A stretch of DNA of 64,000 nt from Kofleriaceae bacterium (GTDB taxonomy: Bacteria > Myxococcota_A > Polyangia > Haliangiales > Haliangiaceae): assembly GCA_965215005.1 (NCBI GenBank), contig CBDCCZ010000004.1:288001-352000 (forward strand), written 5' to 3'. Each line of letters opens with the position of its first letter. Position 1 is the first letter of the stretch. This document shows, one piece after another, positions 15,971 through 47,535 of this stretch. The translations under genes and the position numbers were made by a program. The notes beneath the pieces were generated by a model. It had not been told where the DNA came from. It did no database searches and saw only the letters and a program-made list of their open reading frames with translations.

Positions 15971-18253
15971 ATGCTGTCGAACAACCGCATACTCGTGTCT
16001 GGGCAGTCGCCTCATCCCTGGGAGCAGGAGGCGATTGAGTTTGCCCGCAAGGCGCTGCCGGATCGCGATCCGATTTGCGTGGCGGAGCTGTTCGATTTGG
16101 TCGATGGCAGCGGGCGCCGCTACGACATCGATCTGCTGGTGATTGGCCGGCATGCGGTGTACGTGGTCGAGATCAAGAGCCACCCGGGAACCATCACCGG
16201 CGATAGTCGCGACTGGACTGTCACGTTTCCCACCGGCGGCAAGAAGATCCTTCCCAACCCGCTCGAGCTCACCAACTACAAGGCCAGAATTCTGGCCAGC
16301 TTGCTCCGCAAGCAGCTCGGCAATTCGTGTCCGTACGTGCAGGCGCTGTGCTTCGTTTCCGATCCGGACGTCAAGGTCGCGCTGGCCGGGCCGGCGCGCC
16401 ACGGCGTGGTCACGCGCAAGAATTTCCTCCGCGCCATCGACTATGGCGAGTTTCCCGGCGCGCCCACCAACCTCACCCGCCGGGTCATCGATCGGCCGAT
16501 GCTGCGCGACCTGCGCCAGGCCTTACAGACGATAGGCATCAAGCCGAGCGTTGGCGCTCTGCAGGTGGATGGCTTCCGCCTCACCGACCTCCTCGAAGTC
16601 ACCGACACCTATCAAGATCACCTGGGCATCAATGCGTCGATGCGCAAATTGCGCCGACGCATTCGCACCTACAACGTTCCGCGCACCACCACCCAAGAGC
16701 AGCGCGATCGCGTGGCTCGCGCCGCCGAGCGCGAGGCCCAGCATCTGGCCACGCTCTCCGACCACCGCCACATCCTCGGCCTGATGGGCTACCACCCAGA
16801 GGGCCCGCTCGGCGGCCCGTGCGTGCTGTTCGAGCACTTCGAAGACGCGGTCCCGCTCGATGCCTTCGTGCGCACCGAGAAGGAGCGCACCGGCGCCGAT
16901 CTGTCGCTCGACGACAAGCTCAGCCTCCTCGAGCAAATCGCCGACGCCCTCGACTATTGCCATCGCAAGGGCGTGTATCACCGCGGCCTGCACCCCGGCT
17001 CCATCTTGGTGCGTCGCGGCGAGAGCAGCCTGCAGGTGCGCGTCTACAACTTCCACCTGGCCGCGCGCGAAGGTGGAAGCCTGGGAACACGGCATATCTC
17101 CAACCTCGGACCGGACAGCTCGGTGGTCTATCGCGCACCCGAGGTCATCGAAAACCCGGACGCCGCCGAAGCCGCCAGCGATCTCTTTTCCCTCGGCGCC
17201 ATCGCCTATTTCCTTCTCACCGGCCGTCCGCCCGGCACCACCTTGGCCGAACGCCACGCGCTCATGGCCCCCGGCTATTTGTCGCTCGCGGTGGCGCGCG
17301 ATGATCTCAACATTCCCGCGATCGAGGAACAGAAGTCTCTCGAAGACATCGTCGCATTCGCCACCTTTATCAATCCCCTCGACCGCTACACCAGCGCTGT
17401 CAAATGGGTCGAAGAGCTACTTGCGGTCGCCACCGCGCCCGCCGAAGTTCCCGCGCCGACCTTCGTCCACCCGCTGCAAGCGCGCGCCGATCAGCTCATC
17501 GCCGCCGACATGCGCGTCGAAAAAGTCCTCGGCTCCGGCTCGAGCGCCCGCGCGCTCTTGGTCGCAACTAACGACGGCCAACGCGCGCTCAAAGTCTCGC
17601 TATCCGAAGACCACGACTACCGCCTCGAGCAGGAAGCCAAGGCCCTCCAGCGCCTCGATAGCTCGCGCATCGTGCGCCTCTACGAGGTGCGCCACTTCGA
17701 TGGCCGCCCCGGCCTGGTCCTCACCTATGGCGGCGACAGCCTCGCCGATTACCTCCGCGAGCACGGCCCGGTCAGCCTCGATTACGCCCGCCGCTGGGGC
17801 GATGACCTGCTCCTGGGCGTCGAAGAGCTCGAGCAAAAGCAGGTCCAGCACCGCGACATCAAGCCCGCCAACGTCGCCGTCGACGACGCCAGCTCCAAGC
17901 GCCAAAAGCACCTGCGCCTGTTCGACCTATCCATGACCGCGACCCCGCCGGACGCGTTCACCGCCGGCACCCCCGCCTATCGCGACCCATTCTTGCCGGC
18001 CCGCGGCGTGTGGGACGAAGCCGCCGATCGCTACGCCGCCGCCATCACCTTGCACGAGATGCTCACCGGCACCCGCCCGCGCTGGGGCGAGGACGACAAT
18101 CGATGTGGCGGGTCTGTTCGCCTGGTGCCGATCACGCCGGCGGTCATTGCCAATTCGGAGAATTCTGCTGATGTCCAACGAAACCTGTGGACCTGTCCGA
18201 TACGTCGCGAATCAAGTCAGCAGTGCGCGGCACTCGATTTATCGCTGGTTTAA
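15971..18253 (+). pseudogene. pglW: BREX-2/Pgl Ser/Thr kinase PglW, C-terminally truncated near 18100
   Basis: N-terminal NERD (YDIDLL...VVEIKSHPG), pseudokinase (HRGLHPGSILV), second kinase (LGSGSSA, HRDIKPAN, GTPAYRDPF). After TGTRPRWGEDD the codon style breaks and the tail looks like read-through; the long C-terminal region of PglW is absent. Confidence 0.82.
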
Positions 18254-18355
18254 TCGTGAGGCCTCGTCAACGAACGTCGACCGGCTTTGGCGCATTAGAC
18301 GGACCCACGCGGGCCACACCGCAAGTCACAGTCCCCAGCACGCTGGCGAGAAGGC

Positions 18356-18928
18356 GTGGACATGACAGGCGTCACGCCGACCGACTTCGACCGCTTGTTT
18401 AAGCTTCGCCTCGTCGTGGCTCGCCATGGCGAGATGGACGCGGCCAAGTGGTGGAATACACAGGGAATACTGGGTCGCCGCGGGGAACTGCTGCTCAAGC
18501 GCGGTTTCCCATCGACGCACTACTTCGCCCAGGCCCGCATTGTGTTCGAGGTGGCTAAGAGCCGGTGCCATGAGCTGTTCGCCCCGCCGGGCTGCATGAC
18601 GTTGTGGAGCTTGCCTGCCGAGGTGGAAGAGCAGTTTCAGGAGCATTGGCAGGGTTGGCTCGACGAAATCGACGAGTGGGCACCGGTGTTTCAGATGGTC
18701 GCGCATCACTCGGGCAAGGACCTGCTCGAAGCGCTCGGCGAGCTCGATCTTGTCGCTCAGCCCCAACTCGATGCGGTCGCGAAGCTCCGACGGTCGGCCG
18801 AGAATCGGGCGGTGCCCATCTCCGGTACGTTCCGCCCCAACGACGACATCATCACGCTGCTCGCTGCCGGATTCGCCCGCGGCGAGACCGGCAGCCCCGC
18901 CATTCCTTACGCGAGGCTGGAAGCGTAG
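18356..18928 (+). CDS. brxE: BrxE family protein
   Basis: LRLVVARHGEMDAAKWWNT...RGFPSTHYFAQAR...TLWSLP matches the BrxE family as I recall it; first gene of the cassette. Confidence 0.82.
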   Translation: MDMTGVTPTDFDRLFKLRLVVARHGEMDAAKWWNTQGILGRRGELLLKRGFPSTHYFAQARIVFEVAKSRCHELFAPPGCMTLWSLPAEVEEQFQEHWQGWLDEIDEWAPVFQMVAHHSGKDLLEALGELDLVAQPQLDAVAKLRRSAENRAVPISGTFRPNDDIITLLAAGFARGETGSPAIPYARLEA

Positions 18929-18930: not shown

Positions 18931-19716
18931 ATGGCGCAGTCCCGATCCAGCGTCGTCTCGTCGTTTACGATCATCAAAGGCTCCTTGATCGACCAGACCT
19001 ACGCGGTGTTCCGGGACTGGGACTTCGGCAAGTCTCGCACCGAGAACCTGCGCGGCGTCCGCGAGAACAACACCATTGGTGTCACGAGCACCCACTGGGC
19101 GCGCGACGTCGCGAAGGTCATAGGCCGCCGTTTCGACCCCACGGGCCGCGACCGCCCGCTGGTGAACCTCGCGATTGCAGGGTGCGAGCGAGACGTCTGG
19201 AAGCCGCTGCTCCTCTTCCACATGACCCGCGACGAGTTCCTGGTGCGCGACTTCTTGGTCCACTGGATCTACCCGCAGTTCGTCCAGGGCGCCCACCGGC
19301 TGCACACGGACAACGTCGCCAAGTACTTGGCTTCCCTCAGCAAGAAGAAGGGCATCGAGTGGTCCGGCAAATGGAGCGACTCCACGACCTCACGGGTGGC
19401 GTCGGGGCTCTTGCGTATAGCCACCGACTTCGGCCTGCTCACCGGCACACTGCACAAGGAATTCGCGTCGTATCAGCTGCCCGAGCAGAGCTTCATCTAC
19501 CTCCTTCATGCGATGGCGGACGTCGAACCTAACGCGCGGCGCATCGTCGACGCCGAGGACTGGCACATGTTCCTCATGGACACTCCAGACGTGGAGCGCG
19601 AGCTCCTGCGACTACATCAGTTTCGCAAGGTCCATTACGAGGTCGCCGGTAGCCTGGCCCAGCTCAAGCTGCCCCATGGATCCTCGGCAGATTACGCAAG
19701 GGAGCTCTGCGCATGA
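18931..19716 (+). CDS. brxA: BREX protein BrxA (DUF1819)
   Basis: SSFTIIKGSLI...WSDSTTSRVASGLLRIATDFGLL...WHMFLM; position between brxE and brxB. Confidence 0.8.
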   Translation: MAQSRSSVVSSFTIIKGSLIDQTYAVFRDWDFGKSRTENLRGVRENNTIGVTSTHWARDVAKVIGRRFDPTGRDRPLVNLAIAGCERDVWKPLLLFHMTRDEFLVRDFLVHWIYPQFVQGAHRLHTDNVAKYLASLSKKKGIEWSGKWSDSTTSRVASGLLRIATDFGLLTGTLHKEFASYQLPEQSFIYLLHAMADVEPNARRIVDAEDWHMFLMDTPDVERELLRLHQFRKVHYEVAGSLAQLKLPHGSSADYARELCA

Positions 19717-20291
19717 GCGATTGGAGGGACCGCCTCGTAAAGCAACTCGAGCCCGTGCTCGAGCAGGCCGATCCGCGCCCCACGATCAGCGCCTACCACG
19801 ACATGCCCTACGCGATTTTCCGGTACCCGCCGGAAGACGAGTTTGCCGTGCGCCAGGAGACCGCGCTGCTTCGCACTCGCCTCGAACAAGCCGGCAAGCG
19901 TGTCACCTCCATCTCGCTGTCAGCCTGCATGCAGGAGGCGCTCGAAGCCGTGGGCCTCGGAGTCGAGGCCTTGGCCGATGCTGAGAAATCTGTCGGCCTG
20001 GAATCGACCATCGAGACCATCCACCAGGTGCTCTGCGAGTACCGCCCACTCGACGAGCTGGTTGCCGCCCGCATTCCAGACGACGCAGCTCCGCTGCGCG
20101 ACGTGGTGTTCATCGTCCGCGCCGGCGCGCTCTTCCCCTTCTACCGCACTTCGTCGTTGCTCGAGCAGCTCAAAGGGAAGGTAACGGTTCCAGGTGTTCT
20201 GTTCTTTCCAGGATGTCTCGAAGGCGCTGCCGGACTTCGCTTCATGTGCGTACTGGATGCCGAGCACAATTACCGGCCGAAGATTTTCTGA
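19713..20291 (+). CDS. brxB: BREX protein BrxB (DUF1788)
   Basis: AIFRYPPEDEF, GALFPFYRTSSLL, VLFFPG, LRFM...NYRPKIF; ATGA overlap with brxA. Confidence 0.88.
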   Translation: MSDWRDRLVKQLEPVLEQADPRPTISAYHDMPYAIFRYPPEDEFAVRQETALLRTRLEQAGKRVTSISLSACMQEALEAVGLGVEALADAEKSVGLESTIETIHQVLCEYRPLDELVAARIPDDAAPLRDVVFIVRAGALFPFYRTSSLLEQLKGKVTVPGVLFFPGCLEGAAGLRFMCVLDAEHNYRPKIF

Positions 20292-20302: not shown

Positions 20303-23300
20303 ATGACGAAATCGACCATCAAGAACCTCTTCGCCAACGACGTCTCCCGACGCATCGAGGAGGTGATCAAGGTCGACCAGGCCGACGAGCAGATTATTCG
20401 CGATGAGCTCGCCGAGTACGTGGTCACCGGCTCCATCCGCGACCACCTCATCGAGGTGCTAGAGCGCTACTGGGAGACCCCAAAGAAGCCTCACGAAGGC
20501 GTCGCAGTATGGGTTTCCGGATTCTTCGGATCCGGCAAGTCGAGCTTCGCCAAATACCTCGGCCTCGCCCTGCAGAACCGCACGGTCGTGGGAGAGAGCG
20601 CCGCGCAGCTCCTCGCCAAGCGCACTGGCGACCCGAAGGCCGAGGTGCTGCTCAGCAACATCGCCGAGCAGATCCCCACCGAAGCGGTCATCTTCGACGT
20701 CTCCACCGACCGCGGCATCCGCACCGGCAACCAGAGCATCACCGAGATCATGTACCGGCTCTTCCTTCAGAGCCTTGGGTACGCCCGTGATCTCGACCTG
20801 TCTGAGCTGGAGATCACCCTGGAGGAGGCCGGGCGGCTCGACGACTTCAAGGCGAAGTACCAGGAGGTCTTCAACAAGGACTGGGACGTCGGCAAGGGGC
20901 TCATCGCCATCGCCGTGCAGCAGGCAAGCCGGGTGATGCACGAGATGGACCCGGACACCTATCCAACCGCAGACAGCTGGCGCGAGTCGGCGATGAAGCG
21001 CGCAGACATCACCCCGGGCGACCTCGCCAAGCGGGGCATGGAGCTGATGAAGCGCCGCTCTCCCGGCAAGACGCTGCTCTTCGTGGTGGACGAGGTTGGC
21101 CAGTTCGTGGCCCGCGACGTCCAGAAGATGCTCGATCTGCAGGCGGTGGTGCAGAACCTCGGGCGCATCGGCCGAGGCAAGATGTGGATCGTCGTCACCT
21201 CGCAGGAGAAGCTCACCGAGCTCGTCGGTGGTCTCGACGACAAGCGGGTCGAGTTGGCGCGCCTCATGGACCGCTTCCCCCTGCAGGTCCACCTCGAGCC
21301 AGCAGACATCTCCGAGGTGACCAGCAAGCGCGTGCTGTCGAAGAACGCACAGGCCGAGAAGACCCTGCGCGAGCTCTTCACCCAGCACCGCGGCCGGCTC
21401 ACTGACAACACCCGGCTTACGGCCGATATCAAGCTGCCGGAGTTGTCTACTGAGAGCTTCGTCGACCTGTATCCGCTGCTGCCGTACCAGATCGACCTGA
21501 TAATCCAGGTCGTCTCGGGTCTTCGCACCCAGGGCGGCGCCAGCAAGCACGTGGGTGGCGCCAACCGCACCATCATCAAGCTGGCCCAGCAGCTCCTCAT
21601 TCACCCGGACGTCGATCTCGCCTCCGCTCCTCTGGGCACTCTGGCCCGGGTCGACCAAGTGTACGACCTGGTGTCCGGAAACATCGGCAGCGAGGTGCGC
21701 GGCAAGATCGACGACATCGGCAAGAAGGTCGACCACCCGCTGGCGCAGCCCGTCGCCAAGGCCATCTGCTTGCTCCAGTACGTCCGCAGCATCCACCGCA
21801 CGCCCGAGAACCTCGCGGCCGCTTTGCACCCCGGCATCGACGCGGACTCGCGGCTGTCCGAGGTCAAGGCCGCTCTCGATGCGCTCGAGAAGGCGCACAT
21901 GGTTCGCCGCGGTGACGATGGCTACCGCATCCCGACCCCGGCCGAGGACGACTGGGAGCGCCAGCGCGCCAGCCTATCGCCCAAGCCTGGCGATGTCAGC
22001 CGCCTGCACGCGGAGGTCGTCACCGGCCTCTGGCAGCCGCAGCCCCAGCACAGCTTCCTCGACGTGAAGGTCTTCAAGGCCGGGCTATATCTGGGTGGCC
22101 GCCTCTCGGTGGAAGGCGACACCCCCGTGCATCTCACGCTGGCCGAAGCAGGTAAGGAGCACGAAGAGCGCGTGGCCGAGGCGCGCAAGCGAAGCCAGAC
22201 CGAGACCAAGTCCATATTCTGGGTGGCGGCTCTCGACCAGGCTATCGATCGTGAAACCGTCGAGCTCTTCCGCTCCAAAGAGATCCTCTCCCGCAAGGAG
22301 CGCGGCGCCCAGACCAAGGACGAAACGGCACTCGTCGCCGAGGAAAAGCTGCGCCTGCGCCGGCATCAGGACGAGCTGCGTCGCTTCATCAAGCAGTCGC
22401 TTTTGACCGGCACCATCTTCTTCCGCGGCAACGACCGCAGCCCGGACGACACGGCGACCGACATCGGCCGCACGGCGGCCAAGGTGCTGGCCCAGGCGCT
22501 CCCGGAGGTCTTCGACCGTTTCGAGGAGGCGGCGGCCCGCGTCGGCAAGAAGGACCTCGAGTCGCTGATGACGACCGAGAACCTCCGCGGGCTAACCTCG
22601 GTCTTCACCGACCTCAACCTGGTCCGCGACCAAGGCGGCAAGCCCGTCTTCAACACCGAGAACGGATCCCTTGCCGAGGTGCTGTCGCGCATCGACAACC
22701 GCACGAGCTACGGCGAGGTGGCCACGGGCCGCTACCTGACCGACGAGTTCGCCAAGGAGCCGTTCGGCTGGGACTTCGACGTCGTCCGCCTGTTCGTCAT
22801 CGCGCTGTTGCGTGCCGGCAAACTCGAAGCCACGAGCAAGGGCCAGGTCATCGAGTCGGCGCTGTCGCTGGATGCTCGTAACACCTTTGCCAACAACAAC
22901 CTGTTCCGTCAGGCCTCGTTCCGTCCCAAGGTCGGCCTCGAGTTCACGAACATTGTCGACGCCTCCGAGTACTTCAAAGAGGTCTTCGGTCGAGAGATTT
23001 CGGAGCTCGAGCAGGGGGTGGTCGCCAACGCCATCCGCGAGGAGATCCATCGCCACGACGAGGAGCTCCACGAGGTGCACACCACCTTGGTGCAGCACGC
23101 GCTGCCCGGTGCCGATGTGCTGCGGATTGCCCTCGACCAGATGCGGTCGATCCGCTCCGGCAAGGAAGACCACGCCATCCTGACCTTCAACTCGGCCTAC
23201 AAGGAGCTGAAAGAAGCCATCAAGCGGGGCGCCGAGCTGTCGCAGGGGCTTACCGAGACTCGGCTGCATGACATCGGCCGGGCTCGCAAGGCGCTCGACG

Positions 23301-23842
23301 TGGTCTGGCCGTTCCTGAAGGAGGAGCCCGACCTCACCGACGAGGACCGCGAGCACGCCGAGAAGCTCGAGGACCTGATGGCGCGCGAGACTTTCTTCCG
23401 CGAGCTCGCGGCCATCGACCAGCATGCGCGGGCCCTGGAACAGGAGCACAAGCGGCGCCACCAGGAGGCAGTCGAGGCTCGCGCCGCAGCCTACGAAGAG
23501 GCTGCCCAGAAGCTCAAAGCAACGCCGGGCTGGGAGCAGCTGGGCGAGGACCAGCAGCGTCGCGTTGCTGGCCCGCTCGTTTCGCGAGCGACCACCGACG
23601 GTTCTGCCTCAATGGCGATCCCGCTACTTCGCTCGGATCTCGCCGCTTGCTCGGGCCGTCTGTCCAGCGCGGTGGAGGAGATGCTCCGACTCGTGGACGG
23701 CAACCGCCTCGTGCGCGTCGCGGCGTCGAGCTACTTCAGCGGCGGCATCGAGACCGAAGAGCAGCTCGACCAGGCCCTGTCTGGTTTGAAAGAGCAGTGC
23801 CTGGAGCTCATCGGCGCCGGCAAAAAGGTGCTGGTTCAGTAG
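20303..23842 (+). CDS. brxC: BREX P-loop ATPase BrxC
   Basis: IEEVIKVDQ, WVSGFFGSGKSSFAK (Walker A), VVDEVGQF, VTSQE, DRFP, LYPLLPYQ; about 1180 aa. Confidence 0.93.
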   Translation: MTKSTIKNLFANDVSRRIEEVIKVDQADEQIIRDELAEYVVTGSIRDHLIEVLERYWETPKKPHEGVAVWVSGFFGSGKSSFAKYLGLALQNRTVVGESAAQLLAKRTGDPKAEVLLSNIAEQIPTEAVIFDVSTDRGIRTGNQSITEIMYRLFLQSLGYARDLDLSELEITLEEAGRLDDFKAKYQEVFNKDWDVGKGLIAIAVQQASRVMHEMDPDTYPTADSWRESAMKRADITPGDLAKRGMELMKRRSPGKTLLFVVDEVGQFVARDVQKMLDLQAVVQNLGRIGRGKMWIVVTSQEKLTELVGGLDDKRVELARLMDRFPLQVHLEPADISEVTSKRVLSKNAQAEKTLRELFTQHRGRLTDNTRLTADIKLPELSTESFVDLYPLLPYQIDLIIQVVSGLRTQGGASKHVGGANRTIIKLAQQLLIHPDVDLASAPLGTLARVDQVYDLVSGNIGSEVRGKIDDIGKKVDHPLAQPVAKAICLLQYVRSIHRTPENLAAALHPGIDADSRLSEVKAALDALEKAHMVRRGDDGYRIPTPAEDDWERQRASLSPKPGDVSRLHAEVVTGLWQPQPQHSFLDVKVFKAGLYLGGRLSVEGDTPVHLTLAEAGKEHEERVAEARKRSQTETKSIFWVAALDQAIDRETVELFRSKEILSRKERGAQTKDETALVAEEKLRLRRHQDELRRFIKQSLLTGTIFFRGNDRSPDDTATDIGRTAAKVLAQALPEVFDRFEEAAARVGKKDLESLMTTENLRGLTSVFTDLNLVRDQGGKPVFNTENGSLAEVLSRIDNRTSYGEVATGRYLTDEFAKEPFGWDFDVVRLFVIALLRAGKLEATSKGQVIESALSLDARNTFANNNLFRQASFRPKVGLEFTNIVDASEYFKEVFGREISELEQGVVANAIREEIHRHDEELHEVHTTLVQHALPGADVLRIALDQMRSIRSGKEDHAILTFNSAYKELKEAIKRGAELSQGLTETRLHDIGRARKALDVVWPFLKEEPDLTDEDREHAEKLEDLMARETFFRELAAIDQHARALEQEHKRRHQEAVEARAAAYEEAAQKLKATPGWEQLGEDQQRRVAGPLVSRATTDGSASMAIPLLRSDLAACSGRLSSAVEEMLRLVDGNRLVRVAASSYFSGGIETEEQLDQALSGLKEQCLELIGAGKKVLVQ

Positions 23843-23854: not shown

Positions 23855-26800
23855 ATGGACAGAGAGACCAGAAATCGCATCCAGCGCGCGACCCAGGCAG
23901 CCCGAGAGCTGTTGGAGCACGAGTACGCCGAGCAGCTCGAGGGTGTGTTCGACATCCGCCTCGACGGCACGATTGCGGCCGAGCCGGGCGAGCACCTCGA
24001 TGCACCCCAGCGGGTGCTTCGAGGCAAGCTGGTCACGGCGGTGGAGCACCAGCGCACGAGCGGGATGAGCAAGGCGGACGCGGTTGCGTCGTACCTCCGG
24101 GAGACGGCGTTCACTACGCTGAACCGTTTCGTGGCGCTGAAGATGCTTGAGGCCCGCGAGCTCGTTCAGGAGTGCATCAGCCGAGGCGATCAATCGGCAG
24201 GTTTCAAGGAGTTCACTGGGCTCGCACCCGGGCTCGTTCAACTCCCCGATCACGGGTACCGCGTCTACATAGAATCGCTCTTTGATGAGATCGGACGCGA
24301 GGTGCGCGTGCTGTTTGACCGGCGAGACCCGGCAAGTCTGCTCTGGCCACGACGACAGGGTCTGTCGGATCTGCTTGGCATCTTGAACGCCTCGGAGCTC
24401 GGGCCCGTGTGGGGCGATGACGAGACGATTGGCTGGGTCTACCAGTACTTCAACAGCGATCACGAACGGAGGCAGATGCGCGCGGAGAGTCAAGCGCCGC
24501 GCAATAGTCGCGAGCTGGCCGTTCGCAACCAGTTCTTCACGCCGCGATATGTTGTTCAGTTTCTCACCGACAACACTCTCGGCCGCATCTGGTACGAGAT
24601 GCGTCAGGGCGACACGCGGCTGCGCGATCTCGATTACCTGGTCCGCCGGCCGAACGAGGTCTTCCTCGCCCAGGGCGAAGGGCCAGATGCCGATCCAGAG
24701 CCGGCCGAGAGCCTGACCGAGGACGAGCAGTTGCAGCGCCCGGTCTACGTGCCATTCCGGGCCAAGAAGGACCCGCGAGATCTCCACGTTCTCGATCCCG
24801 CCTGCGGCTCGGGGCACTTCCTGCTTTATGCTCTCGATTTGCTACTCGTAATCTACGAGGAGGCGTGGACCGACGAGGCTTCGCCCAGATCGGAGGTCAC
24901 ACGCAAGACGCTTCGCGATGATTACCGGGACATGGACGCCCTTCGGACGGCGATGCCCGGCCTAATTCTGCGGTACAACCTTCACGGCATCGACATCGAC
25001 GCGAGGTGCGCCCAGATAGCCGCACTCGCGCTTTGGATGCGGGCGCAGCGAGCACACAAGGAGCTCGGCATTGGACGCGCTATCCGTCCCGCCATTCAGA
25101 AGACGAATATCGTTGTCGCCGAGCCCATGCCCGGGGCGCCGCGGTTGCGCGAGGAGTTTTTCGCCACCCTTGAACCGAAACTTGGTGAACTGCTTGAACA
25201 CGTGTTCGATGTGATGGGGCTCGCGGGAGATGCCGGCATGCTTCTTCGGATCGAGGACGATATCGCCGCGTCCGTGCGGGAGCTTCATCCTGGTGACGGG
25301 GATCTCTTTCAAGTCAGCAACGAGGCAAAATGGCGCGCAGTCGAAGCAGATCTGCTCCTAGCATTAAGCGCCTACGCCACTACTGCAGCGACTTCAGACG
25401 ATTTGCGACGCAGGCTGTTCGCGGAAGACGCCGCACACGGACTGGGCTTCGTCAACCTTTGCGGCAAGCGCTTTGACGTTGTGCTAATGAATCCGCCGTT
25501 CGGTCAGCCAACAGCCCCCCTTTATGCCTACGCACGCGAGGCCCTGAACGGCGCCCACGGGGACATCTTCGGGATGTTTGTTAGGCGCGCCCTGCAGCTC
25601 TTGGAGGACGATGGACTTGCTGGGTGTATCACTTCCCGGTCGTTCATCATGCGTCCAAGACTGGAGGAACTCCGGCGTCAGGACATCCTGCCATTCATTT
25701 CCTTTCTGTTGGACCTTGGCGGTGGCGTGATGGACGACGCGCTCGTCGACTCGTGTGCGTTTACGCTCGACAACCGAGGACCACGGGTCCTTTGGGCGGC
25801 GGACGCGAGACAGATCTCTACCGACCAAAGAGAGTCAGGAACGCAGGCGCACAGATGGACGAGGTGCCCAAAGGAAGCCCTTCGACAGGCTGCCGAAAAG
25901 CGAGATCCTCTACGACGTTCCGTCTCGTGCCTTGGCGTTGCTGCAGACCGCGGACGAACTCGAAACAATGGCCGGAACCGCCCGTGAAGGCATGAAGACC
26001 TTCGACAACGCTCGTTTTCTCCGGCTGTCCTGGGAGATTGCACCGGCATTTGTGGGGCGAGGTCACCACTGGGTACCTTTCGCAAAGGGGGGGGCATTCG
26101 CGCTGTTCCTCGGTCCGACCGATTGGCTCCTGAACTGGAATCGCGACGGCGCTGAACCTCGAGCTGTCAATGAGAGGGTAAACGGATCAACGGCTCAAGT
26201 GCGGCAGGCGAGCACCTATTGGTATCGATCCGGTGCGACCTATACATACCGGAGCCAGCTAGGTTTCAGCGCTCGGGTTTTGCCTCTAGACCACATCTTC
26301 TCCAACAGTGGCCCGGCGATCTTGGTTGAACCCGACAAAGGGACGGCGGTGAGTAGCCTCTTCTTGCTCGGGTGGCTGAACTCCCGTCTAATCCGCGCCC
26401 TTGCCCAACTACAAGCGAACTTCGGGAAGTTCCTTACCGGCATCTTCAAGGCGATGCCCTGGGTTGAGCCCGATAGGAGCACCAGGGTCCAGGTCGAGGG
26501 AGCTGTCGAGGCCGCACTTGCTGCACTCATCCAAAACGAGATGCGGAGGGAAACGAGTCCCTACTACTGTGGTCCGTTTCCGTGCGAAACGTTTGATGAG
26601 GCGATTGAGAATACAGTTCGCATGGCAAGACGACGAGATGCGGCCATCAATGGCTGCGTTGACTCATGCAGTGCAGTAATAGACGCTCTTTATGCGATCG
26701 ATTCCTCGGGTTGGGGCGACGATGTCCTCGGCACCACGAAACCGGATTATGCATGGAGCAATGTCACCGAGACGGAGGCCGCCTCGTCCCGAAATTCGGT

Positions 26801-34173: not shown

Positions 34174-34509
34174 GCCCTCCTACTGACCATGAAGCCGCGC
34201 ATCGCAGTAGGTGCGGACTGTCGGGCGGATACCAACGGGCGTTGGATAATCCTCCCCAGGATTATTTCTCTGTGCGTGTCGTTCTTCTCGCCGGTGGCGA
34301 GGAAGTCGGCAACGCCGGAATGGCCGTCGATGCTGACCTGGATCGCACCACAGGTGTCCTCCGTGTGCAGCCCGGCTCTAAGGCGAGTGTGGGCCTGATG
34401 CTGAGTCGGGACACGGTGCCGTCGTTCCGGATCGTGGTCATCGAGACGTCGACCGACATGGTTCTCGTGCAGACCCCAGAGATCCCGGTGAAGCTAGGAA
34501 TCTAGTGAA

Positions 34510-39608: not shown

Positions 39609-39636
39609 ATGCTCGGCGCATGGATCGGGACAGTAG

Positions 39637-42308
39637 ATGCCGACGGCAATGTCCCAAGCGCGAAGTTCCCTCGCTCGTAGCCAGCGCGGCGCAAGCAATG
39701 CTCGCATCGCGCCGATTTCCTGCGAGCTCGAGCTGCGCGCCACCCTGGCCGAGAGCGATGGCGAGCCGGTCGCCATCTTGGTTCCGTACCTGGCCGAGCC
39801 GGTGCCGCCGGACATCGCTGGGATCCACCCGGTCACCGGCGAGCGTCGCCTGGCGCGCATCTTCGATGCCGCTGGCGCCCATCCCGCGCTGTTGCAGTCG
39901 CCGCTCAAGCAGGCGCTGTTGGCCCAGCCCGACAAGTTCGCCGGGCCGATCAGCGGCACCACGGTGAGCCTGGAGCTGGCCTGGCGGCGGTTTCTCGACC
40001 GCGAAGCCGGCTTGCCGCAGACCGAGGTGCTGTCGGTGCAGCACCTGGCCAAGTTGTGCGCCGAGGCGCCCGGTGGCGTCGAGTTTGGTCAGCGCTGGGT
40101 CTACGATGGGCCGCTGCGCGAGGCGTTGGCCAGATTTCTGGACTCGCAGGTCGGCGAGCTCGGCCGGCGGCTGTGGGCTGCCTGGGAGCAGGGCCGCGGC
40201 ACCGACATGGCCGCGTGGTCGCTATTGCTCGAGACCTTGGCGCCGCAGATTGCCGGCAGTGAGGTTTTGAAGACGTATCTGCCGGAGAAGCTGGCGTCGA
40301 TGGTGCCCGGCATCGATCTCGCCGATGATTTGGCGCTGCTCGCGCAATGGGGCGAGCTCGCCAAGAGCTTGCGCCTGCGCCTGGGTGAGACCGCCTTTGC
40401 GCGGCTGGCCGCTCAGGCCGATGGGCTCTTTCCCATTGAGACGCTCGCTGCTCAGCTTCTCGACAACCCGTATGTGCCGAGCTCGCTGGTCTGGGCCAAA
40501 GACCAGCTCGCCGCATCGCTCCGCGATGCCATGGCCTCGCTCACCGTCGAGCGCTTTGCCGCCGCCAAGGCCGACCTGCAGCGGCTCGAGGCCCACCGCC
40601 TCAAGGTCGACCCGGCGCACGTCTCCACGGTGCTGCGGGCGCGCATGGCGGTGCGGCTCTTGGCCTATCTCTGGCAGCGGCAAACCCGGCCGCCGAGCTC
40701 GGCGCCAGCGCACAAGACGCGAGCCTGGCGTTGGCCGAGCACTACGCTAGCGAAGGGGGCTTTGTCGACTACGCGCGCCGGCGCGCCCAAGGCGGCGGCA
40801 GCGGCGCGCTGGATGCCGCCATCGAGTCGGTCATCGCCCGCGTTCATGCGCTGCGCGACGCCGACGATGAGGGGTTTGCGCGCGGATTGCAGTCGTGGCT
40901 GCACGCCGGTCGGCCGCACGATCGCGTCGTGGCCATCGACAAGGCGCTCGACCGCTTTGCGGTGCGCTTCCTCGAAGGCGGCGCGCACCGCAAGCTCTTG
41001 GTGCTGCTCCTCGATGGACTGTCGTGGTCGGTGGCCGTCGAGCTGCTCTTGGATTTGGAAAGTCATGAGTATGGCCCAATCAAATGGCGACCGAGCGGCT
41101 ACCACGGCGCCGCGCCGCTGCCGCCGATGCTGGCGGCGTTTCCGACCATCACCGAGGTGAGCCGCAGCGCGTTCTTCGCCGGCGCGCCGATGCCAAGCGG
41201 CGCCTCGCACGCAACCAGCCGCGATCCGGATCGCTTCGAGGCTCACCGCGGCTTGAACAAGCTCCTCGGCGAGGGCCCGACGCTGCTCCTCAAGGGCGCG
41301 GCCGAAACCGCCACCGGCTTTGCGACCAGCGAGCTGCGCGAGCTTCTGCGTGGCGACGACCGCGTGGTCGGGGTGGTGGTCAACGCCGTCGACGACCACC
41401 TCAAGCTGACCATGAGCCTCGAGGTGGAATTTCGGCTTGAGTCGATTCGCGTGTTGGGCGAGGTGCTCGAGCTGGCCACCCACGAAGATCGCGCGGTGTT
41501 GGTGGTGGCCGATCACGGTCACGCCACCGGCGGGCGCATGGACTACCTCGCGCCCAAGACCAGCGAATGCGGCGCCCGCTGGCGCCTGCTCGATGACGGC
41601 GAGGAGCCGGGCGCGGGCGAAATCGCACTCGAAGGCGAGGGCGCTTGGAGCCCGCACAAGCGCCGGCGCGTGGCCATGCTCGCCACCGAAACCAAACGCT
41701 ACGTGAGCAGTAAGCACGCCGGCGAGCACGGCGGCGCCACCTTGGCCGAGGTGGTCGCGCCGGCGTTCTTCCTCGGCTCCGACCGCCTGGCGCAAAGCCC
41801 CACCTACGTTGGTGACGAAGACATGGAAGCCGGCGCGCTGGCGCCGCCGGTGTGGTGGGACTGCGAGTTAGCGCCCGAGCGTGCCGAGGCGCGGCCGGCG
41901 GCTCCGGCGCCGCGCGCCAAGAACGCCACCAAGAAATCCAAACCCGCGCCCAACCAAGTCGCCATGCCCTTCGCCGAGGCGCCGGTGGCCGAGGCGGCGG
42001 GCGCGAAGCCGAGCAAGGTCCGCCAAGCGATCGAGGCGAGCGAGCAGTTCGCCGGCCTCAACAAGCGAAAACGCGCCGAGCTCGACGCGGTGATAACGCA
42101 GCTCGAGGTCCTCCTCGATTACGGCGACGACGGCAAGCTGCCCGACGAGGTCTTCGCCCACCGCGTCGGCGTGCCCAAGCGCCAAGTCGAAGGCGTGGTC
42201 GCCCGCATCCGCGAATACCTCAACATCGATGGCTATGCAGTGGTGCGCTACGAAGCCCAGCAGGTCATCTTCGACCTCGAGCTCTTCCGCGAAATGTTCG
42301 AGGCCTAA
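39637..42308 (+). pseudogene. pglZ: BREX-2 type PglZ, N-terminus apparently clipped, frameshift near 40710
   Basis: Two overlapping ORFs (39637..41160, 40731..42308); HYASEGGFVDYAR, LLDGLSW, FPTITEVSR, VVNAVDDHL, VADHGH, GEHGGATLAEVVAP, LNIDGY; directly followed by brxD. Confidence 0.8.
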
Positions 42309-42332
42309 AAATCACCGAATGAGCGATTGTCG

Positions 42333-43670
42333 ATGAGCCAACCCAGCAAACTCCTCCGTCGCGACATCATGGCGGCGCTGCGCAATGGCACCGTCCCCCA
42401 GCGCGGCATCGAGCATTTCGCCGTTGGCCTCGACCGCTTCGCCGACGCCATCGACGAGGAGCTGGCCCGCGCCGCTCAAGGCAGTGGCGTCTTCAAAGCC
42501 GTGCGCGGCGAATACGGCAACGGCAAGACCTTCTTCGCCCGCTGGCTCCAGCACCGCGCGCAACACCAAGGCTTTGCCACCGCCGAGGTGCAGATCTCCG
42601 AAACCGAGACTCCCCTGTACCAAATGCAGACCATCTACCGACGGGCCATGGAGAGCCTGCGGACCAAGGAGTGGCACACCGGCGGCTTCCGCTCGCTCAT
42701 CGACCGCTGGTTTCTCGACCTCGAAGAAGAAGTTTGCGCCCGCCCCGGCATCGATGTTCACGACGGCCCGCGCGTCGCCACCCTGGTCGGCGAGCTCCTC
42801 GAAACCCGCCTTGCCAGCGTTAGCGCCACCCAAAGCCAGTTTTCTGCCGTCCTTCGCGCCTACCACCGCGCCCGCGTCGCCGAAGACCAAGCCACCGCCG
42901 AAGGTCTTCTATCGTGGATCATGGGCCAGCCCAACGTCGCCGCCGCCATCAAGCGCCAAGCCGGCGTCAAAGGCGAAGTCGACCACGCCGGCGCTAGCGG
43001 CTTTCTGCGCGGCATGCTCGAAGTCCTGCGCCAAACCGGCCGCAAAGGCCTCGTCCTCGTCCTCGACGAAGTCGAAACCGTCCAGCGCATGCGCCGCGAC
43101 GTCCGCGAACGCAGCCTCAACGCCCTGCGCCAACTCCTCGACGACCTCGACGGCGGCAGGTATCCCGGCCTCTACGTCCTCGTCACCGGCACCCGCGACT
43201 TCTTCGAAGGCCCCAGAGGCATCCGCTCGGCCGAAGCACTCGCCCAGCGCCTCTACGTCGACTTCCGCCTGCCCTTCGAAAGCTCCAAAGCCGTGCAGAT
43301 TCGCCTGCAGCCCTTCACCCTCGAACGCCTCATCGAAGTCGGCACCACGATCCGCGACCTCTACAACGCCAAACACCCGGGCCGCATCGCCGCCAAAGTC
43401 ACCGACGTAATCATCGCCGCCCTCGCCAAAGACACCGCCGGCGCCCTCGGCGAAAACGTCGGCGTCGCCCCGCGCATCTACCTCAAAAAGCTCGTCGGCG
43501 GCCTCCTCGACATGGTCGACGAGCACGAAGCCTTCGACCCCGCCACCCACTTCCACCTCGACCTCACCCCCGCCGAGATGACCCCCGAAGAAAAGGCCGC
43601 CGCCGGCCTCGAAACCTCCGTCGACGACATCGAGCTCGACCTCGCCAGCGAGCCCGGCGCATTGTCATAG
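42333..43670 (+). CDS. brxD: BREX ATP-binding protein BrxD (DUF2791)
   Basis: ALRNGTVP..G...AVG, VRGEYGNGKTFF, QISETETPL, LVLDEVET, ALAQRL, GVAPRIYLKKLV. Confidence 0.92.
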   Translation: MSQPSKLLRRDIMAALRNGTVPQRGIEHFAVGLDRFADAIDEELARAAQGSGVFKAVRGEYGNGKTFFARWLQHRAQHQGFATAEVQISETETPLYQMQTIYRRAMESLRTKEWHTGGFRSLIDRWFLDLEEEVCARPGIDVHDGPRVATLVGELLETRLASVSATQSQFSAVLRAYHRARVAEDQATAEGLLSWIMGQPNVAAAIKRQAGVKGEVDHAGASGFLRGMLEVLRQTGRKGLVLVLDEVETVQRMRRDVRERSLNALRQLLDDLDGGRYPGLYVLVTGTRDFFEGPRGIRSAEALAQRLYVDFRLPFESSKAVQIRLQPFTLERLIEVGTTIRDLYNAKHPGRIAAKVTDVIIAALAKDTAGALGENVGVAPRIYLKKLVGGLLDMVDEHEAFDPATHFHLDLTPAEMTPEEKAAAGLETSVDDIELDLASEPGALS

Positions 43671-43777
43671 GAGGAAGTTAGGGTTCTGGAAAATGGCACC
43701 CAGGCGCCCTACACTTCGCGGCGCGCGCTAACGCGCTGCATGGCGACAGAGTCGATCATTAGACGTCAGAGCCAGGA

Positions 43778-44305
43778 CTACTCCTCGAGGTCGGGTTGCT
43801 CGGCTTCTAGCTCATCGATCTCGGGGAGCACCATCTCGCCCATCGTCGTTGAGAACCTCGCGGATTGGTCTTCTTCGAGCCGAGGATGGTGCGCGAGTTT
43901 CGCGGCCTCGTCCTGGGCCAGGGGCGCTTCCATCTCCTTAGGTGGCGGCATGATGCACGTGTACGTATTCACCGACGCGGCCTGCTGATAGCCGAAGGCG
44001 ACCGCCATGCCTGCGCTCACGCCGGCGCCCACACCGAGGAGTAAGCGCTTTCGACGCGCGGAACGCGCGCCCACTGGACAATCGCCGGTGATGACGGTGC
44101 CATCGGCGCGATGGTGGAAGCGAACACATGGCGTCTCGTCCTGCCGAGCGAGCAGCGCCTCGAGCTGCTCACTGGTCATATGTGAGAGGTGATAGACGTC
44201 CTTGTCGCACTGGGAGCAGTGGCGTATTGCGTCGTCCCCCCGCATGTCGTCCCAGCTGGCGCGGCAAGGACTCGCAACCTTCAGTCGCATCGAACGCTTG
44301 GTCAT
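43778..44305 (-). CDS. Hypothetical protein with an N-terminal Cys motif and one TM segment
   Basis: ASPCRASWDDMRGDDAIRHCSQCDKDVYHLS...CVRF..RADGTVITGDCP followed by a hydrophobic stretch. Confidence 0.7.
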   Translation of the reverse strand: MTKRSMRLKVASPCRASWDDMRGDDAIRHCSQCDKDVYHLSHMTSEQLEALLARQDETPCVRFHHRADGTVITGDCPVGARSARRKRLLLGVGAGVSAGMAVAFGYQQAASVNTYTCIMPPPKEMEAPLAQDEAAKLAHHPRLEEDQSARFSTTMGEMVLPEIDELEAEQPDLEE

Positions 44306-44412
44306 GGGGCTATGCAACGCCCGATGCTCCCATTGGATCTGGAAGTCGACGGCGATTGCCACGACCGCCGCAGCAAGGGGCAACGATCAACCTATCGAAT
44401 ATTGCGATCAAC

Positions 44413-44433
44413 ATATCGATATTTCGATATAAT
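44413..44433 (+). promoter_or_regulatory. Palindromic operator overlapping a TATAAT -10 box
   Basis: ATATCGA-TATT-TCGATAT (44413-44430); TATAAT at 44428-44433, 8 nt before GTG 44442. Confidence 0.6.
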
Positions 44434-44441
44434 CGAGAGAA

Positions 44442-44595
44442 GTGCCGATAGAACTCGAGAAGAATCGAGTCGAGATAGCGCGAAACGTGCGCGAGCTACG
44501 CCGCTCTCGCAAGTGGAGCCAGGCCGAGCTGGCGGCGCGGCTGGGGCTGTCGCAAAGCCGGCTGAGCGAGCTCGAACGCGGCGACGGGTCGTTCA
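44442..44595 (+). pseudogene. XRE-family HTH gene, truncated
   Basis: IARNVRELRRSRKWSQAELAARLGLSQSRLSELERGDGSF, then runs into unrelated sequence. Confidence 0.65.
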
Positions 44596-44979
44596 ACTCT
44601 GGGCCGTCGGTATCACAGAGATCTTTCTCGACGGCTCGTTCGCCGAAGACAAGGATCATCCGAATGACGTCGATGGCTATTTCGAGTGCGACCTCCACTT
44701 CCTCGCATCCGGCCGCTTACAGCGCCAGCTGAATCTCCTGGATCCTCACAAGGTCGGGACGTGGGATCCTCGTTCGCGTCTGCCTACCGCGGCTATCCGA
44801 AGAAGCAGCTGCCGATGTGGCATCGGTATCGAGTCGAGTTCTACCCCCCTTATGGCCAGCGCTCGGGAATCTGCGATCGCTACGGCAACCAGCTCGAGTT
44901 TCCGTCGGCATTCCGGCTGTCTCGCCGGGATGGGCGACCCCGAGGAATCATCAAGGTGAAGAAGGACGGCAGTCTATGA
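44594..44979 (+). pseudogene. N-truncated, frameshifted nucleotidyltransferase-like (DUF6932-type) putative toxin
   Basis: QLWAVGITEIFLDGSFAEDKDHPNDVDG (GS...DxD) and, after a frameshift near 44785, YRGYPKKQLPMWHRYRVEFYP...RGIIKV. Confidence 0.6.
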
Positions 44980-45437
44980 TCCGCAACGAAAATGAGTACA
45001 AGGAGGCAATTCGCCGACTTCAAGAGGAGGAGGGGCGGCTTAGCGATACGAAAACCAATCTCGAAGAGATGGGGCTGAGCTCGGACGAGGTCAAGCGCGC
45101 GCTCGATCCCATGCGTTCGTTCCACGCGCAGCTGGTAGAAGAAGTCGAGAGCTACGAGCGGCTTCGCCGCGGGGAGTTCTCTGAGCTAACGAATCTTCAC
45201 GGCCTGGGCCAGATGTTCGTGGCGGTGCGAATCGCCAAGGGGCTCTCTCAACGTGAGCTGGCGCGAATCTTAGGGGTTCACGAGACGCAAGTATCACGCG
45301 ACGAGCGCAACGAATATCACGGCGTCACCGTGGACCGAGCCAGCAGAATTCTCGACGCTCTGGGTGTCTCGATGCGAAGTCAGCTCGAACAGCCGTTGGT
45401 TCCAGGCGCTGGCGCGGAGCCTCTCACCCTCGGATGA
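44976..45437 (+). CDS. XRE/HigA-like HTH regulator (putative antitoxin)
   Basis: MIRNENEY...VESYERL...RIAKGLSQRELARILGVHETQVSRDERNEY; ATGA overlap with the upstream gene. Confidence 0.85.
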   Translation: MIRNENEYKEAIRRLQEEEGRLSDTKTNLEEMGLSSDEVKRALDPMRSFHAQLVEEVESYERLRRGEFSELTNLHGLGQMFVAVRIAKGLSQRELARILGVHETQVSRDERNEYHGVTVDRASRILDALGVSMRSQLEQPLVPGAGAEPLTLG

Positions 45438-45456
45438 AGCCGCGAGTTGAGCAATC

Positions 45457-47535
45457 ATGAGTGATGCATTCGCGCGCTTCAGTCCGGCACTGCAGTATCA
45501 AATCGTCAACGCGCTGGGATTTACGGGGCTGCGGCCGGTGCAGGAGCAGGCGGCCGCGCAAATTCTCGATGGCAAGAACTGCGTGGTGCTGGCGCCGACA
45601 GCGGGCGGCAAGACCGAGGCGGCGTTCTTTCCGCTGTTGTCGCAGATGGACGCAGGCGATTGGAAGCCGGTGTCGGTGATCTACGTGGCGCCGATTCGGG
45701 CGCTGCTCAACAATCAGGAAGAGCGGCTGATTCGCTATGCGGGGCTCGTTGGCCGGCGCGCGTTCAAGTGGCACGGCGATGTGTCGCAGAGCGCGAAGAA
45801 GCGGTTCTGCGGCGATCCAGCCGACATTCTATTGACCACGCCGGAATCGCTGGAGGCGATGCTGATGAGCCAGCGGGTGCCGGCGCGGCGGCTGTTTCGC
45901 GGTTTGCGCGCGGTGGTCATCGATGAGGTCCACGCGTTCGTCGGCGACGATCGCGGAGGTCATCTTTCTGCGGTGCTAGAGCGTCTGAGCCGCTACTGCG
46001 GCAGTGACGTGCAGCGTATTGGACTCTCGGCCACGGTGGGCAATCCGGCCGATATTCTGGCCTGGGCGGCGGGAAGCTCACAGCGTGCGGGGGTGGTGGT
46101 GGATCCGGGTGGTGGTCGCGCCGAACCGCAGGTGACTCTCGACTTCGTCGGTAGCCTCACCAACGCCGCGATCATCATTGCCAATTTGCACCGGGGCAAG
46201 AAGCGGTTGGTCTTTGCCGATAGCCGTCGCGTGGTCGAAGATCTCGGCCGCGAGCTGGTGAGTCGTGGGATCGATGCGTATGCGATTCATGGATCGCTGT
46301 CCTTCGATGAGCGGCGCCTGGCTGAAGAGAAGTTCGAGCGTGGGCGCGACTGTGTGATCGTGGCAACCAGCGCCATGGAGCTCGGCATCGACATCGGCGA
46401 CCTCGACCACGTCATTCAGATCGACGCACCGACCACCGTGGCTGCGTTTCTTCAGCGCATGGGCCGCACCGGTCGCCGCGCCGGCACGCAGCCCAATTGC
46501 CTGTTCTTGGCCACCGACGACAAGGGCCTGCGGCGCGCCGCTGCCATCATTCATCTGTGGGAGCAGGGCTTCGTCGAGTCGCTGCCGATCGGCAGGTTCG
46601 CGCCCCATCTCTTGGCGCACCAGCTCATGGCGCTCATCGTTCAGCAAGGCGGCATCCCAGCCGGCGACTGGTGGGCGTGGATCTGCCGGGCCACGCCGTT
46701 TCAGAACATCGAAGACGCGGATCGTGCCGAGCTCGTGGACAAAATGCTCATCGAGGACATCCTCTGCGAGGCCGACGGCCGCTTACTGCTCGGCGCGGTC
46801 GGCGAGCGCGTGTACGGCAAACGCAATTTCCTCGACCTCTACGCGGTCTTCTCGACGCCGCCGGAGATGACCGTGATCTACGGCGGTAAGGTCATCGGCA
46901 CCATTGCGGTCGACTTCGTCACCTTGCAGGGCGAGAACGATCTCACCTTCACCCTCGCCACCCAGGCCTGGCGCGCCACCGAGATCGACTGGAGCAAGTC
47001 CATCATCTACGTGGCCAAGGCTGAAAGCGGCCACGCACCCCGCTGGGTGGGCAGCCGCAAGTTTCTGTCGCGCACGCTGTGCCAGGCGATACGGCACGTC
47101 GTCGCCGGCACCGAGCTCAACCCTCGCTGGTCGCAACGCGCCCAGGACGCCATCGGCCGAATCCGCGACGAGTACGGCTTTCTCGGTAGCTCGAATGGAT
47201 TCCAGCTGGCCCGCCACGAAACCGGTTATCGCCTCTACACGTTTGCCGGCGGCAAGCACAACGTGGTTCTCGCTCGCCTGCTCGAAGAGCCGTTGGGCGA
47301 GCGCATCTCGTCGAGCAACCTCTACCTCACCTTGCGCGACCGCGCCGGCCAGAGCGAAGCGGCGATCCGCGACGCGCTGCGCGAGCTGCACGACCAGCGT
47401 CGCCCAAATGCCGAGGATGTGGTTCGGCTCGCGAAGTCCTGCGTGACCCATCGCCTGAGCAAATTCCAGCGCTGCCTGAGCGATCGGCTCGAGTCGCGCT
47501 ACATCGCCCATACCCTGGCCGACGACATCGCCTGA
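45457..47535 (+). CDS. brxHI: Lhr-like DEAD/DEAH helicase (BREX BrxHI)
   Basis: APTAGGKTEAA, TTPESLE, IDEVH, GLSATVGN, IHGSLS, ATSAMELGIDIGDLD, QRMGRTGRR; downstream of brxD. Confidence 0.88.
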   Translation: MSDAFARFSPALQYQIVNALGFTGLRPVQEQAAAQILDGKNCVVLAPTAGGKTEAAFFPLLSQMDAGDWKPVSVIYVAPIRALLNNQEERLIRYAGLVGRRAFKWHGDVSQSAKKRFCGDPADILLTTPESLEAMLMSQRVPARRLFRGLRAVVIDEVHAFVGDDRGGHLSAVLERLSRYCGSDVQRIGLSATVGNPADILAWAAGSSQRAGVVVDPGGGRAEPQVTLDFVGSLTNAAIIIANLHRGKKRLVFADSRRVVEDLGRELVSRGIDAYAIHGSLSFDERRLAEEKFERGRDCVIVATSAMELGIDIGDLDHVIQIDAPTTVAAFLQRMGRTGRRAGTQPNCLFLATDDKGLRRAAAIIHLWEQGFVESLPIGRFAPHLLAHQLMALIVQQGGIPAGDWWAWICRATPFQNIEDADRAELVDKMLIEDILCEADGRLLLGAVGERVYGKRNFLDLYAVFSTPPEMTVIYGGKVIGTIAVDFVTLQGENDLTFTLATQAWRATEIDWSKSIIYVAKAESGHAPRWVGSRKFLSRTLCQAIRHVVAGTELNPRWSQRAQDAIGRIRDEYGFLGSSNGFQLARHETGYRLYTFAGGKHNVVLARLLEEPLGERISSSNLYLTLRDRAGQSEAAIRDALRELHDQRRPNAEDVVRLAKSCVTHRLSKFQRCLSDRLESRYIAHTLADDIA

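Follow-up and report, generated by a model that had tools for sequence, protein, structure and literature searches.

A type-1 BREX cassette between the cut ends of a type-2 BREX operon in a Kofleriaceae genome

How did the genes of two different bacteriophage exclusion (BREX) systems come to lie one inside the other in the genome of a Kofleriaceae bacterium? The window, that is the whole stretch of 64,000 nucleotides analysed here (assembly GCA_965215005.1, contig CBDCCZ010000004.1, positions 288,001 to 352,000 of the forward strand), belongs to a 381-kb contig of an assembly that is 93% complete. Profile searches with PADLOC, Pfam and NCBIfam located all of its BREX genes at 15207-47535 on the plus strand, in the order orf245, pglW', brxE, brxA, brxB, brxC, pglX (in two frames), fic, pglZ (cut by an IS66 element), brxL, SIR2, HerA, a type-2 'pglZ (in two frames), brxD, a small insertion and brxHI. 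The outer genes belong to a type-2 (Pgl) operon that has lost about 10 kb, namely 3' pglW, pglX, pglY and 5' pglZ, and the 21,609 nt standing between its two cut ends (19,073 nt without IS66) hold brxE-A-B-C-pglX-fic-pglZ-brxL followed by SIR2-HerA. The GC content of this insert is 62.8%, versus 67-68% in the outer remnants. Our results indicate that the locus is likely a single-genome scar of the known turnover of defence loci, unusually legible, and a one-off rather than a working hybrid. Its features, by their coordinates in the window, are:

15207..15944, plus strand: orf245, conserved gene leading the type-2 BREX operon (245 aa; no Pfam, PADLOC or NCBIfam match)
15971..18096, plus strand: pglW', with NERD nuclease, pseudokinase and most of kinase 2 (75% identity to G011 PglW 1-711 of 1504)
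18097..18365, plus strand: left insert end, with the cassette's 5' leader and a decayed HTH_17 (excisionase-like helix-turn-helix, HTH) gene (ATG at 18171; relative's promoter region absent)
18356..18928, plus strand: brxE-family gene (NF033447 150.7 bits, cut-off 40; BREX-6 BrxE model 41.4, cut-off 80)
18931..19716, plus strand: brxA (PADLOC BrxA E 1e-87; 89% identity to L052)
19713..20291, plus strand: brxB (PADLOC BrxB E 1e-53)
20303..23842, plus strand: type-1 brxC (NF033441 886 bits; 99% identity to L052)
23855..28115, plus strand: type-1 pglX, with a frame change near 25820-25855 (halves 355 and 190 bits on BREX-1 PglX)
28112..29236, plus strand: Fic/SoFic cargo gene (PADLOC SoFic E 1e-108; Pfam Fic_N and Fic)
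29414..34505, plus strand: inner pglZ, cut by IS66 after codon ~763 (last 87 codons beyond the element, in frame with the 5' part)
31705..34232, minus strand: IS66 element (2,528 nt; Pfam IS66 domains; 8-nt target duplication at 31697-31704 and 34233-34240)
34510..36549, plus strand: brxL (TIGR02653 973.5 bits, cut-off 628)
36559..37866, plus strand: SIR2 of a SIR2-HerA pair, intact open reading frame (NF042942 533 bits, cut-off 500)
37863..39608, plus strand: HerA of the SIR2-HerA pair, intact open reading frame (NF042943 836 bits, cut-off 800)
39609..39705, no strand: linker holding the right join (97 nt)
39706..42308, plus strand: type-2 'pglZ (first ~50 residues missing; conserved motif deleted near 39820; frame change near 40693)
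42327..43670, plus strand: type-2 brxD, intact open reading frame (NF033438 571 bits; 85% identity to G011)
43671..45456, no strand: insertion of 1.8 kb between brxD and brxHI (opposite-strand hypothetical gene, HTH-DUF6932 gene broken over three frames, HTH_3 gene)
45457..47535, plus strand: brxHI, type-2 Lhr-like helicase, intact open reading frame (PADLOC BrxHI E 7e-265; 82% identity to G011)

The outer genes were compared mainly with those of G011, a genome of the same family that holds their closest orthologs. The frame of pglW' is open across all 708 homologous codons, without a stop, and its product is 75% identical to residues 1-708 of the 1,504-aa PglW of G011, after which the match ends; DNA homology ends at 18095, the break lies at 18095-18097, and the frame runs on into foreign DNA as far as a stop at 18253. 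Only positions 4-719 of 1403 in the PADLOC model and 8-715 of 1391 in the NCBIfam model are matched, and the NCBIfam score is 619 bits against a cut-off of 990, far from a full-length PglW of ~1,400-1,600 aa with its C-terminal half of winged helix-turn-helix and iSTAND domains. The break falls late in kinase 2, at Pfam position 204 of 263 and past the catalytic loop; as predicted from the sequence, this kinase is without its last ~55 residues and the whole C-terminal half of PglW is gone. A naturally short PglW was ruled out by the relatives. Both PglW halves are contiguous in 20 of 20 genome loci, picked mainly for long contigs from 47 matches of the orf245 family (18 uninterrupted, at 1,398-1,489 aa, one with a broken frame and one at the edge of its contig), and the ends of 16 other short PglW homologs are scattered between positions 451 and 1082. 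Among 30 metagenome loci, all 17 that reach the C-terminal half have it, and the other 13 stop short of it or have no visible pglW. When PglW' alone was used to scan genomes, it gave no match.

On the right side, type-2 PglZ homology starts at ~39706, corresponding to ~residue 55 of the 942-aa protein of G011. Its C-terminal part reaches 338 bits on BREX-2 PglZ (cut-off 200); the protein is incomplete and, like the short PglW, not of the normal form: most of 14 aligned PglZ homologs have the N-terminal segment that is absent from the window. Remote pglZ homology in the 97-nt linker was rejected as not significant: 356 of 500 shuffles score as high against the 5' end of G011 pglZ, and no significant match was obtained to the PglZ N-terminal profile, the rest of the genome or the fetched loci. 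The C-terminal half of PglW, PglX, PglY and the N-terminus of PglZ from G011 were found nowhere in the assembly by tblastn, with the C-terminal half of PglZ as a control at E 1e-179; no fragment of type-2 pglX or pglY survives in the assembly, and the outer system has neither PglX nor PglY. BrxD and BrxHI follow pglZ, as type 2 expects, and their genes are adjacent in G011, G014, G022 and G006, unlike in the window. These results bear out most of an initial annotation of this DNA, which had pglW breaking within its second kinase near 18100, an N-terminally clipped type-2 pglZ near 39700 ahead of brxD and an Lhr-like helicase, about 21.5 kb of another BREX in between and exactly these genes missing. 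The nesting and both breaks thus stand, while its type-6 reading of the insert, discussed below, does not, and it had missed IS66, SIR2-HerA, the 1.8-kb insertion between brxD and brxHI, and orf245.

In intact relatives the block corresponding to the missing one measures ~9.7 (G006), 9.9 (G022) and 14 kb (G014). It includes two slots that often hold cargo: by a hand count of the gaps between matches in type-2 genome loci, gaps of more than 1 kb separate pglW from pglX in 4 of 19 and pglX from pglY in 11 of 16. The type-2 operon of G011, the closest one, is also broken between pglW and pglX, its parts lying on separate contigs (L015 on G011:C81 and L027 on G011:C117), with unrelated genes and a similar short segment on both sides of the split. 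This is an independent break at the pglW-pglX slot.

The joins were examined in run X1, the only run holding this DNA and probably its source sample, at a depth of 2-4. One 20-kb Logan contig of this run spans 14500-31600 with 0 mismatches and one 1-nt gap, and a second spans 34300-39755 without a mismatch, so that both joins are crossed, the right one by only 35-50 nt of PglZ-homologous sequence. Given the low depth and the stretch 39756-39821, which is without a Logan contig, the detail of the 5' end of 'pglZ is weak. The insert is tied to this genome by its IS66 element, with an 8-nt target duplication and 14-15 differences in 2,528 nt to the two other copies in the genome that were compared. 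Terminal repeats and att (attachment) sites were not seen at the joins, where only chance-level GC-rich repeats occur; no microhomology or sequence common to both joins was seen, no tRNA target was found, and no integrase was present among the scanned reading frames. Neither 18097 nor 39706 shows a recombinase, transposase, att repeat or target duplication, and the sole insertion sequence (IS) is internal to the insert, which therefore does not qualify as an integrative element or a composite transposon. In this respect too the initial annotation was right: it had put one BREX where the core of another belongs, and had seen neither an integrase nor an att repeat.

The type of the insert was judged mainly against locus L052, in genome G734. 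The genes brxA, brxB, brxC, pglX, pglZ and brxL stand in type-1 order; not all six are intact, with IS66 in pglZ and a frame change in pglX that is possibly a sequencing error. The latter gene shifts from frame +2 to +3 (versus the L052 protein), the X1 Logan contig agrees with the assembly there, and the two PglX halves together exceed the BREX-1 cut-off. A phase-variable tract was considered at the frame change and rejected, as no homopolymer is visible. The initial annotation had taken the cassette for a type 6 that could use the orphan brxD and brxHI. In the accessible part of PMC12839542, BrxE is summarised as exclusive to type 6 in the original classification, BrxE plus a helicase are given as the markers of type 6, and types 5 and 6 are treated as subsets of type 1. 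The insert has no brxD and brxHI of its own in place of brxL. On the type-6 models, its BrxE stays below the cut-off, PglX scores 240 plus 146 versus 900 and PglZ, scored in its IS-truncated form, 238 versus 400; type-6 PglZ is nevertheless the best NCBIfam match of the inner PglZ, which is also below the type-1 cut-offs. Its own BrxL is 95% identical to that of the closest relative, L052 in G734.

An alignment search with BrxE retrieved 80 loci from many phyla (63 with at least 3 kb upstream), and none of the 80 carries pglW, orf245, brxD or brxHI in its flanks. In 50 of these 80 genomes brxE, brxL and brxD were located. By hand count, 43 of the 50 have brxL downstream of brxE, no more than 20 kb away and on the same contig and strand; in the remaining ones it is on another contig (4), is represented only by more distant homologs on other contigs (1) or gave no match (2). 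BrxD occurs in 17 of these 50 genomes, never near brxE, although links may be missed in draft contigs. In ~15 kb after brxL, where the cargo varies, no brxD, brxHI, SIR2 or HerA occurs in the five closest relatives, and none of 50 orf245 loci carries type-1 genes. With its own BrxL, the type-6 models below cut-off and relatives ending in brxL without brxD, the insert is a type-1 BREX carrying BrxE, not a type 6. Such a brxE-led, brxL-ended type-1 form is widespread in several phyla (43 of 50 genomes; loci L052-L131). The cassette is also a mosaic: synonymous divergence (dS) to G734 is 0.22 in brxC and 0.65-1.2 in neighbouring genes, which suggests that brxC alone was recently exchanged.

That the inner cassette borrows the orphan brxD and brxHI is unsupported. 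The two products are 85% and 82% identical to the type-2 proteins of G011, the relatives of the cassette are without brxD, and the inner PglZ is interrupted. Moreover, BrxHI is presumed, in the accessible part of PMC12839542, to do for type 2 what BrxL does for type 1; since the cassette has BrxL, it has no evident need of BrxHI.

At its left end, the insert lacks the predicted promoter region of its relative. L052 aligns to the window from 18097, and its counterpart of the decayed leader gene is an HTH_17 gene; the ratio of nonsynonymous to synonymous substitution (dN/dS) is 1.0 over 30 codons in the window, versus 0.10 between two relatives. L052 homology begins 10 nt after a promoter-like motif, TTGAGC-17-TATGCT, read by eye at L052:9700-9790 and largely common to L053. 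As the relative's promoter region is absent from the window, the insert is likely transcribed by read-through from a promoter upstream of orf245. Only a few bases separate the left join from the transcription start predicted for the relative's promoter, a single post hoc observation that may be chance. An HTH_17 gene stands upstream of brxE in 29 of 75 loci. In this genome, the same leader heads two more apparent defence clusters, each with an IS nearby (G000:C1:192959 and G000:C5:12305; L164 and L165), a type I restriction-modification-like set and an ATPase-methylase-helicase-like set as judged from their translations; the HTH_17 gene may thus be a general leader of defence cassettes. Upstream of this leader one relative has a serine recombinase; the query that showed it had no further match, either among the 63 loci or in this genome.

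Until the IS66 insertion the inner pglZ read in a single frame. The element costs it 87 codons, a region corresponding to the predicted terminal beta-barrel of type-1 PglZ in the accessible part of PMC12205998. The element belongs to an active-looking family, with seven further full or near-full copies (97.5-99.4% identity) in the genome; two pairs that were compared differ by 0-1 nt, and the copy in the insert differs from them by 14-15 nt. SIR2-HerA is a system that acts by NAD+ depletion on infection. The two adjacent genes of the window are above their family cut-offs and, because the inner pglZ is cut by IS66, this pair is the only clearly intact system at the locus. Close SIR2 relatives were found in 0 of 400 other genomes of the phylum at E 1e-60; protein matches of up to 86% identity exist, without genomic context.

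How old are the joins? Six outer segments with 737 outgroup-conserved columns showed 13 window-only versus 18 G011-only changes and no stops, where neutral drift, simulated at 0.03 per site, is expected to add ~43. Without excess drift in the outer remnants, either the joins formed recently or selection still acts on the remnants, and from this comparison recent joins are likely. Signs of decay are the IS66 with its target duplication, the lost PglZ motif, the HTH pseudogene and the broken HTH-DUF6932 gene. A first selection test with two outgroups gave excess window-only changes in brxA, brxB and inner pglZ and was not used; as dN/dS is 0.08-0.09, this excess may be module exchange rather than decay.

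The explanation that we prefer, and hold to be somewhat on the probable side, is that a type-1 cassette with SIR2-HerA landed in a type-2 cargo slot and that recent flanking deletions then removed the old core. A self-contained cassette would have inserted into the pglW-pglX or the pglX-pglY slot, and deletions on each side would have taken 3' pglW, pglX, pglY and 5' pglZ; both slots lie within the deleted block and are often filled, which supports this route. The insert would then have been read from the type-2 promoter upstream of orf245, and the inner BREX might have worked alone until its PglZ lost the predicted C-terminal beta-barrel to IS66. At present the type-2 system would be dead, SIR2-HerA would be the part still likely to defend, and brxD and brxHI would be leftovers that have had too little time to decay. 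In Streptomyces, pglZ null mutants are viable only when pglX is lost as well (accessible part of PMC4365076); the joint loss of pglX and pglZ would then be tolerated here too, if by analogy the same dependence extends to this genome.

Several points weigh against this explanation. The dependence between PglX and PglZ is known from Streptomyces type 2 only. No type-2 pglX or pglY fragment is left to show the slot step directly, and the sequence expected from a single replacement is identical, so that the sequence alone cannot separate the two routes. A promoter scan of 14500-20500, which gave no consensus site (0.8 expected by chance), did not locate the read-through promoter. Drift amounts to ~0.3 per site in the HTH leader, versus under ~0.02-0.03 in the outer remnants; given this contrast, the preferred explanation needs an HTH gene that was already dead when the left join arose. 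The 1-nt frame changes in pglX and 'pglZ do not exceed the background density (one was also seen in 2 of 49 ordinary orthologs) and may be errors, and the lost PglZ motif near 39820 falls in the stretch without Logan cover. A one-step replacement, in which two illegitimate crossovers in pglW and pglZ swapped ~10 kb for the cassette and left the type-2 system equally dead, is to be considered as a possible but clearly less probable course of events. It agrees with the sharp left join (pglW homology to 18095, cassette homology from 18097), with the missing pglX and pglY fragments and with the failure to find an att repeat or integrase, and the HTH gene could have decayed in the donor. However, the joins share no microhomology, the two systems are too diverged for homologous exchange (type-2 PglY versus inner BrxC, E 0.03) and the cargo slots in the deleted block are commonly filled, and we favour the route through slot insertion and deletion.

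Two further explanations concern whether the locus works as a whole and whether it exists. If the joins were old and the remnants under selection, PglW' might serve as a backup nuclease-kinase, with BrxA and BrxB replacing its C-terminal half and BrxD and BrxHI assisting the type-1 core. Indeed, pglW', brxD and brxHI are free of stops and of excess change at conserved sites next to a fully neutral HTH gene, all BREX genes point the same way, inner PglZ matches the type-6 model best among those of NCBIfam (238 of 400, below cut-off), and the C-terminal half of PglW is described as BrxA-like plus BrxB-like in the accessible part of PMC12839542, so that the swap would be like for like. We nevertheless find a functional hybrid improbable: there is no second case in 80 brxE loci or 50 orf245 loci, the short PglW homologs have scattered ends, kinase 2 lacks its last ~55 residues, inner PglZ is cut and the cassette has its own BrxL. 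An equally doubtful variant is a type-1/type-2 chimera that captured the type-2 promoter, in which BrxA and BrxB of the cassette took the place of the lost half of PglW, and the NERD-kinase half and BrxD/BrxHI were backup effectors under selection until IS66 hit pglZ; the contrast of a fully decayed HTH leader with undecayed remnants is compatible with it. A misassembly, joining the defence loci of two strains or organisms in a low-depth metagenome assembly, is unlikely to the point that we give it the least weight of all. The support comes from one sample at low depth, the right join is barely passed, with no Logan contig just beyond it, the exact left-join 32-mer was not found in metagenome contigs and the PglW' protein cluster has one member; but each join is crossed by independent unitigs with no mismatch, neither join has a repeat that could mislead an assembler, two chimeric joins would both need to keep type-2 order and strand, and other contigs of the genome carry copies with 99.4% identity to the IS66 of the insert.

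The operon is led by orf245, a family present in 43 of 401 genomes of the class (a tally that takes in the unpublished G342) and found directly upstream of pglW in 20 of 20 fetched genome loci. It is probably a seventh type-2 BREX gene in this group. The ESM Atlas gave only leads below 0.8 for it, and its profile against PglX was not significant (E 0.25). A short second remnant of the family, with an internal stop and no BREX genes found nearby, lies elsewhere in this genome (G000:C3:40433-40606), and is possibly the trace of another lost type-2 operon. The island is flanked upstream by a CDP-alcohol phosphatidyltransferase gene (14044-14727) and downstream (49674-63750) by a cluster with phosphatidylserine decarboxylase, a PEP-utilising enzyme, an AMP-binding protein and an aminotransferase, so a lipid-synthesis cluster may have been split by it. 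Flank synteny that might bear on the hotspot assumed in the initial annotation was looked for in 120 genomes of the family, where the downstream flank gene at 50673-53291 had no match at E 1e-100 and the PEP-utilising enzyme no close match.

Because the displaced system has kept its two cut ends, the event can, on the reading preferred here, be placed to within a few bases at the left join and dated as recent. The locus is also a warning, as the accidental co-occurrence of brxE, brxD and brxHI could mislead tools working from gene lists into calling it type 6 or a hybrid. Should the hybrid be true after all, modules of BREX subtypes would be interchangeable, and the locus would be a direct test of the proposal that the C-terminal half of PglW equals BrxA plus BrxB. 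The type-1 form with brxE and brxL, together with orf245, may matter more than the nesting itself.

We found no description of a BREX nested in another BREX in the full-text literature, most subscription journals being outside its coverage; mixed and broken BREX gene sets are in print (accessible part of PMC9716671). At hotspot 37 of E. coli, defence systems replace each other without a detectable mobile element (accessible part of PMC10121019), as in the window; here, however, in a case seen only once, the system that was displaced belongs to the same superfamily as its replacement and has left its two cut ends in place. Compared with the type 2 BREX/Pgl of Streptomyces coelicolor (pglWXYZ with brxD and brxHI), the outer genes are orthologous and in canonical order, and BrxD and the C-terminal part of PglZ pass the NCBIfam cut-offs, but pglX and pglY are absent, pglW and pglZ are clipped, 1.8 kb separates brxD from brxHI and orf245 leads the operon. 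The insert has the six core genes of type 1 BREX (brxA-B-C-pglX-pglZ-brxL) in order, with BrxC and BrxL passing their cut-offs; it differs in the BrxE-family gene in front, Fic inside, SIR2-HerA behind, the interrupted pglZ and the missing promoter region. Type 6 BREX has the order brxE-A-B-C-pglX-pglZ-brxD-brxHI, and a BrxE-family gene does lead the insert with brxD and brxHI downstream; however, the insert ends in brxL, the type-6 models stay below cut-off and the downstream genes belong to the type-2 operon. Finally, as in the SIR2-HerA anti-phage system, the two genes of the predicted pair are adjacent and overlapping and pass NF042942 and NF042943, but in the window they occupy the slot after brxL, whose content varies; relatives have different cargo there, for example the reverse transcriptase of G734.

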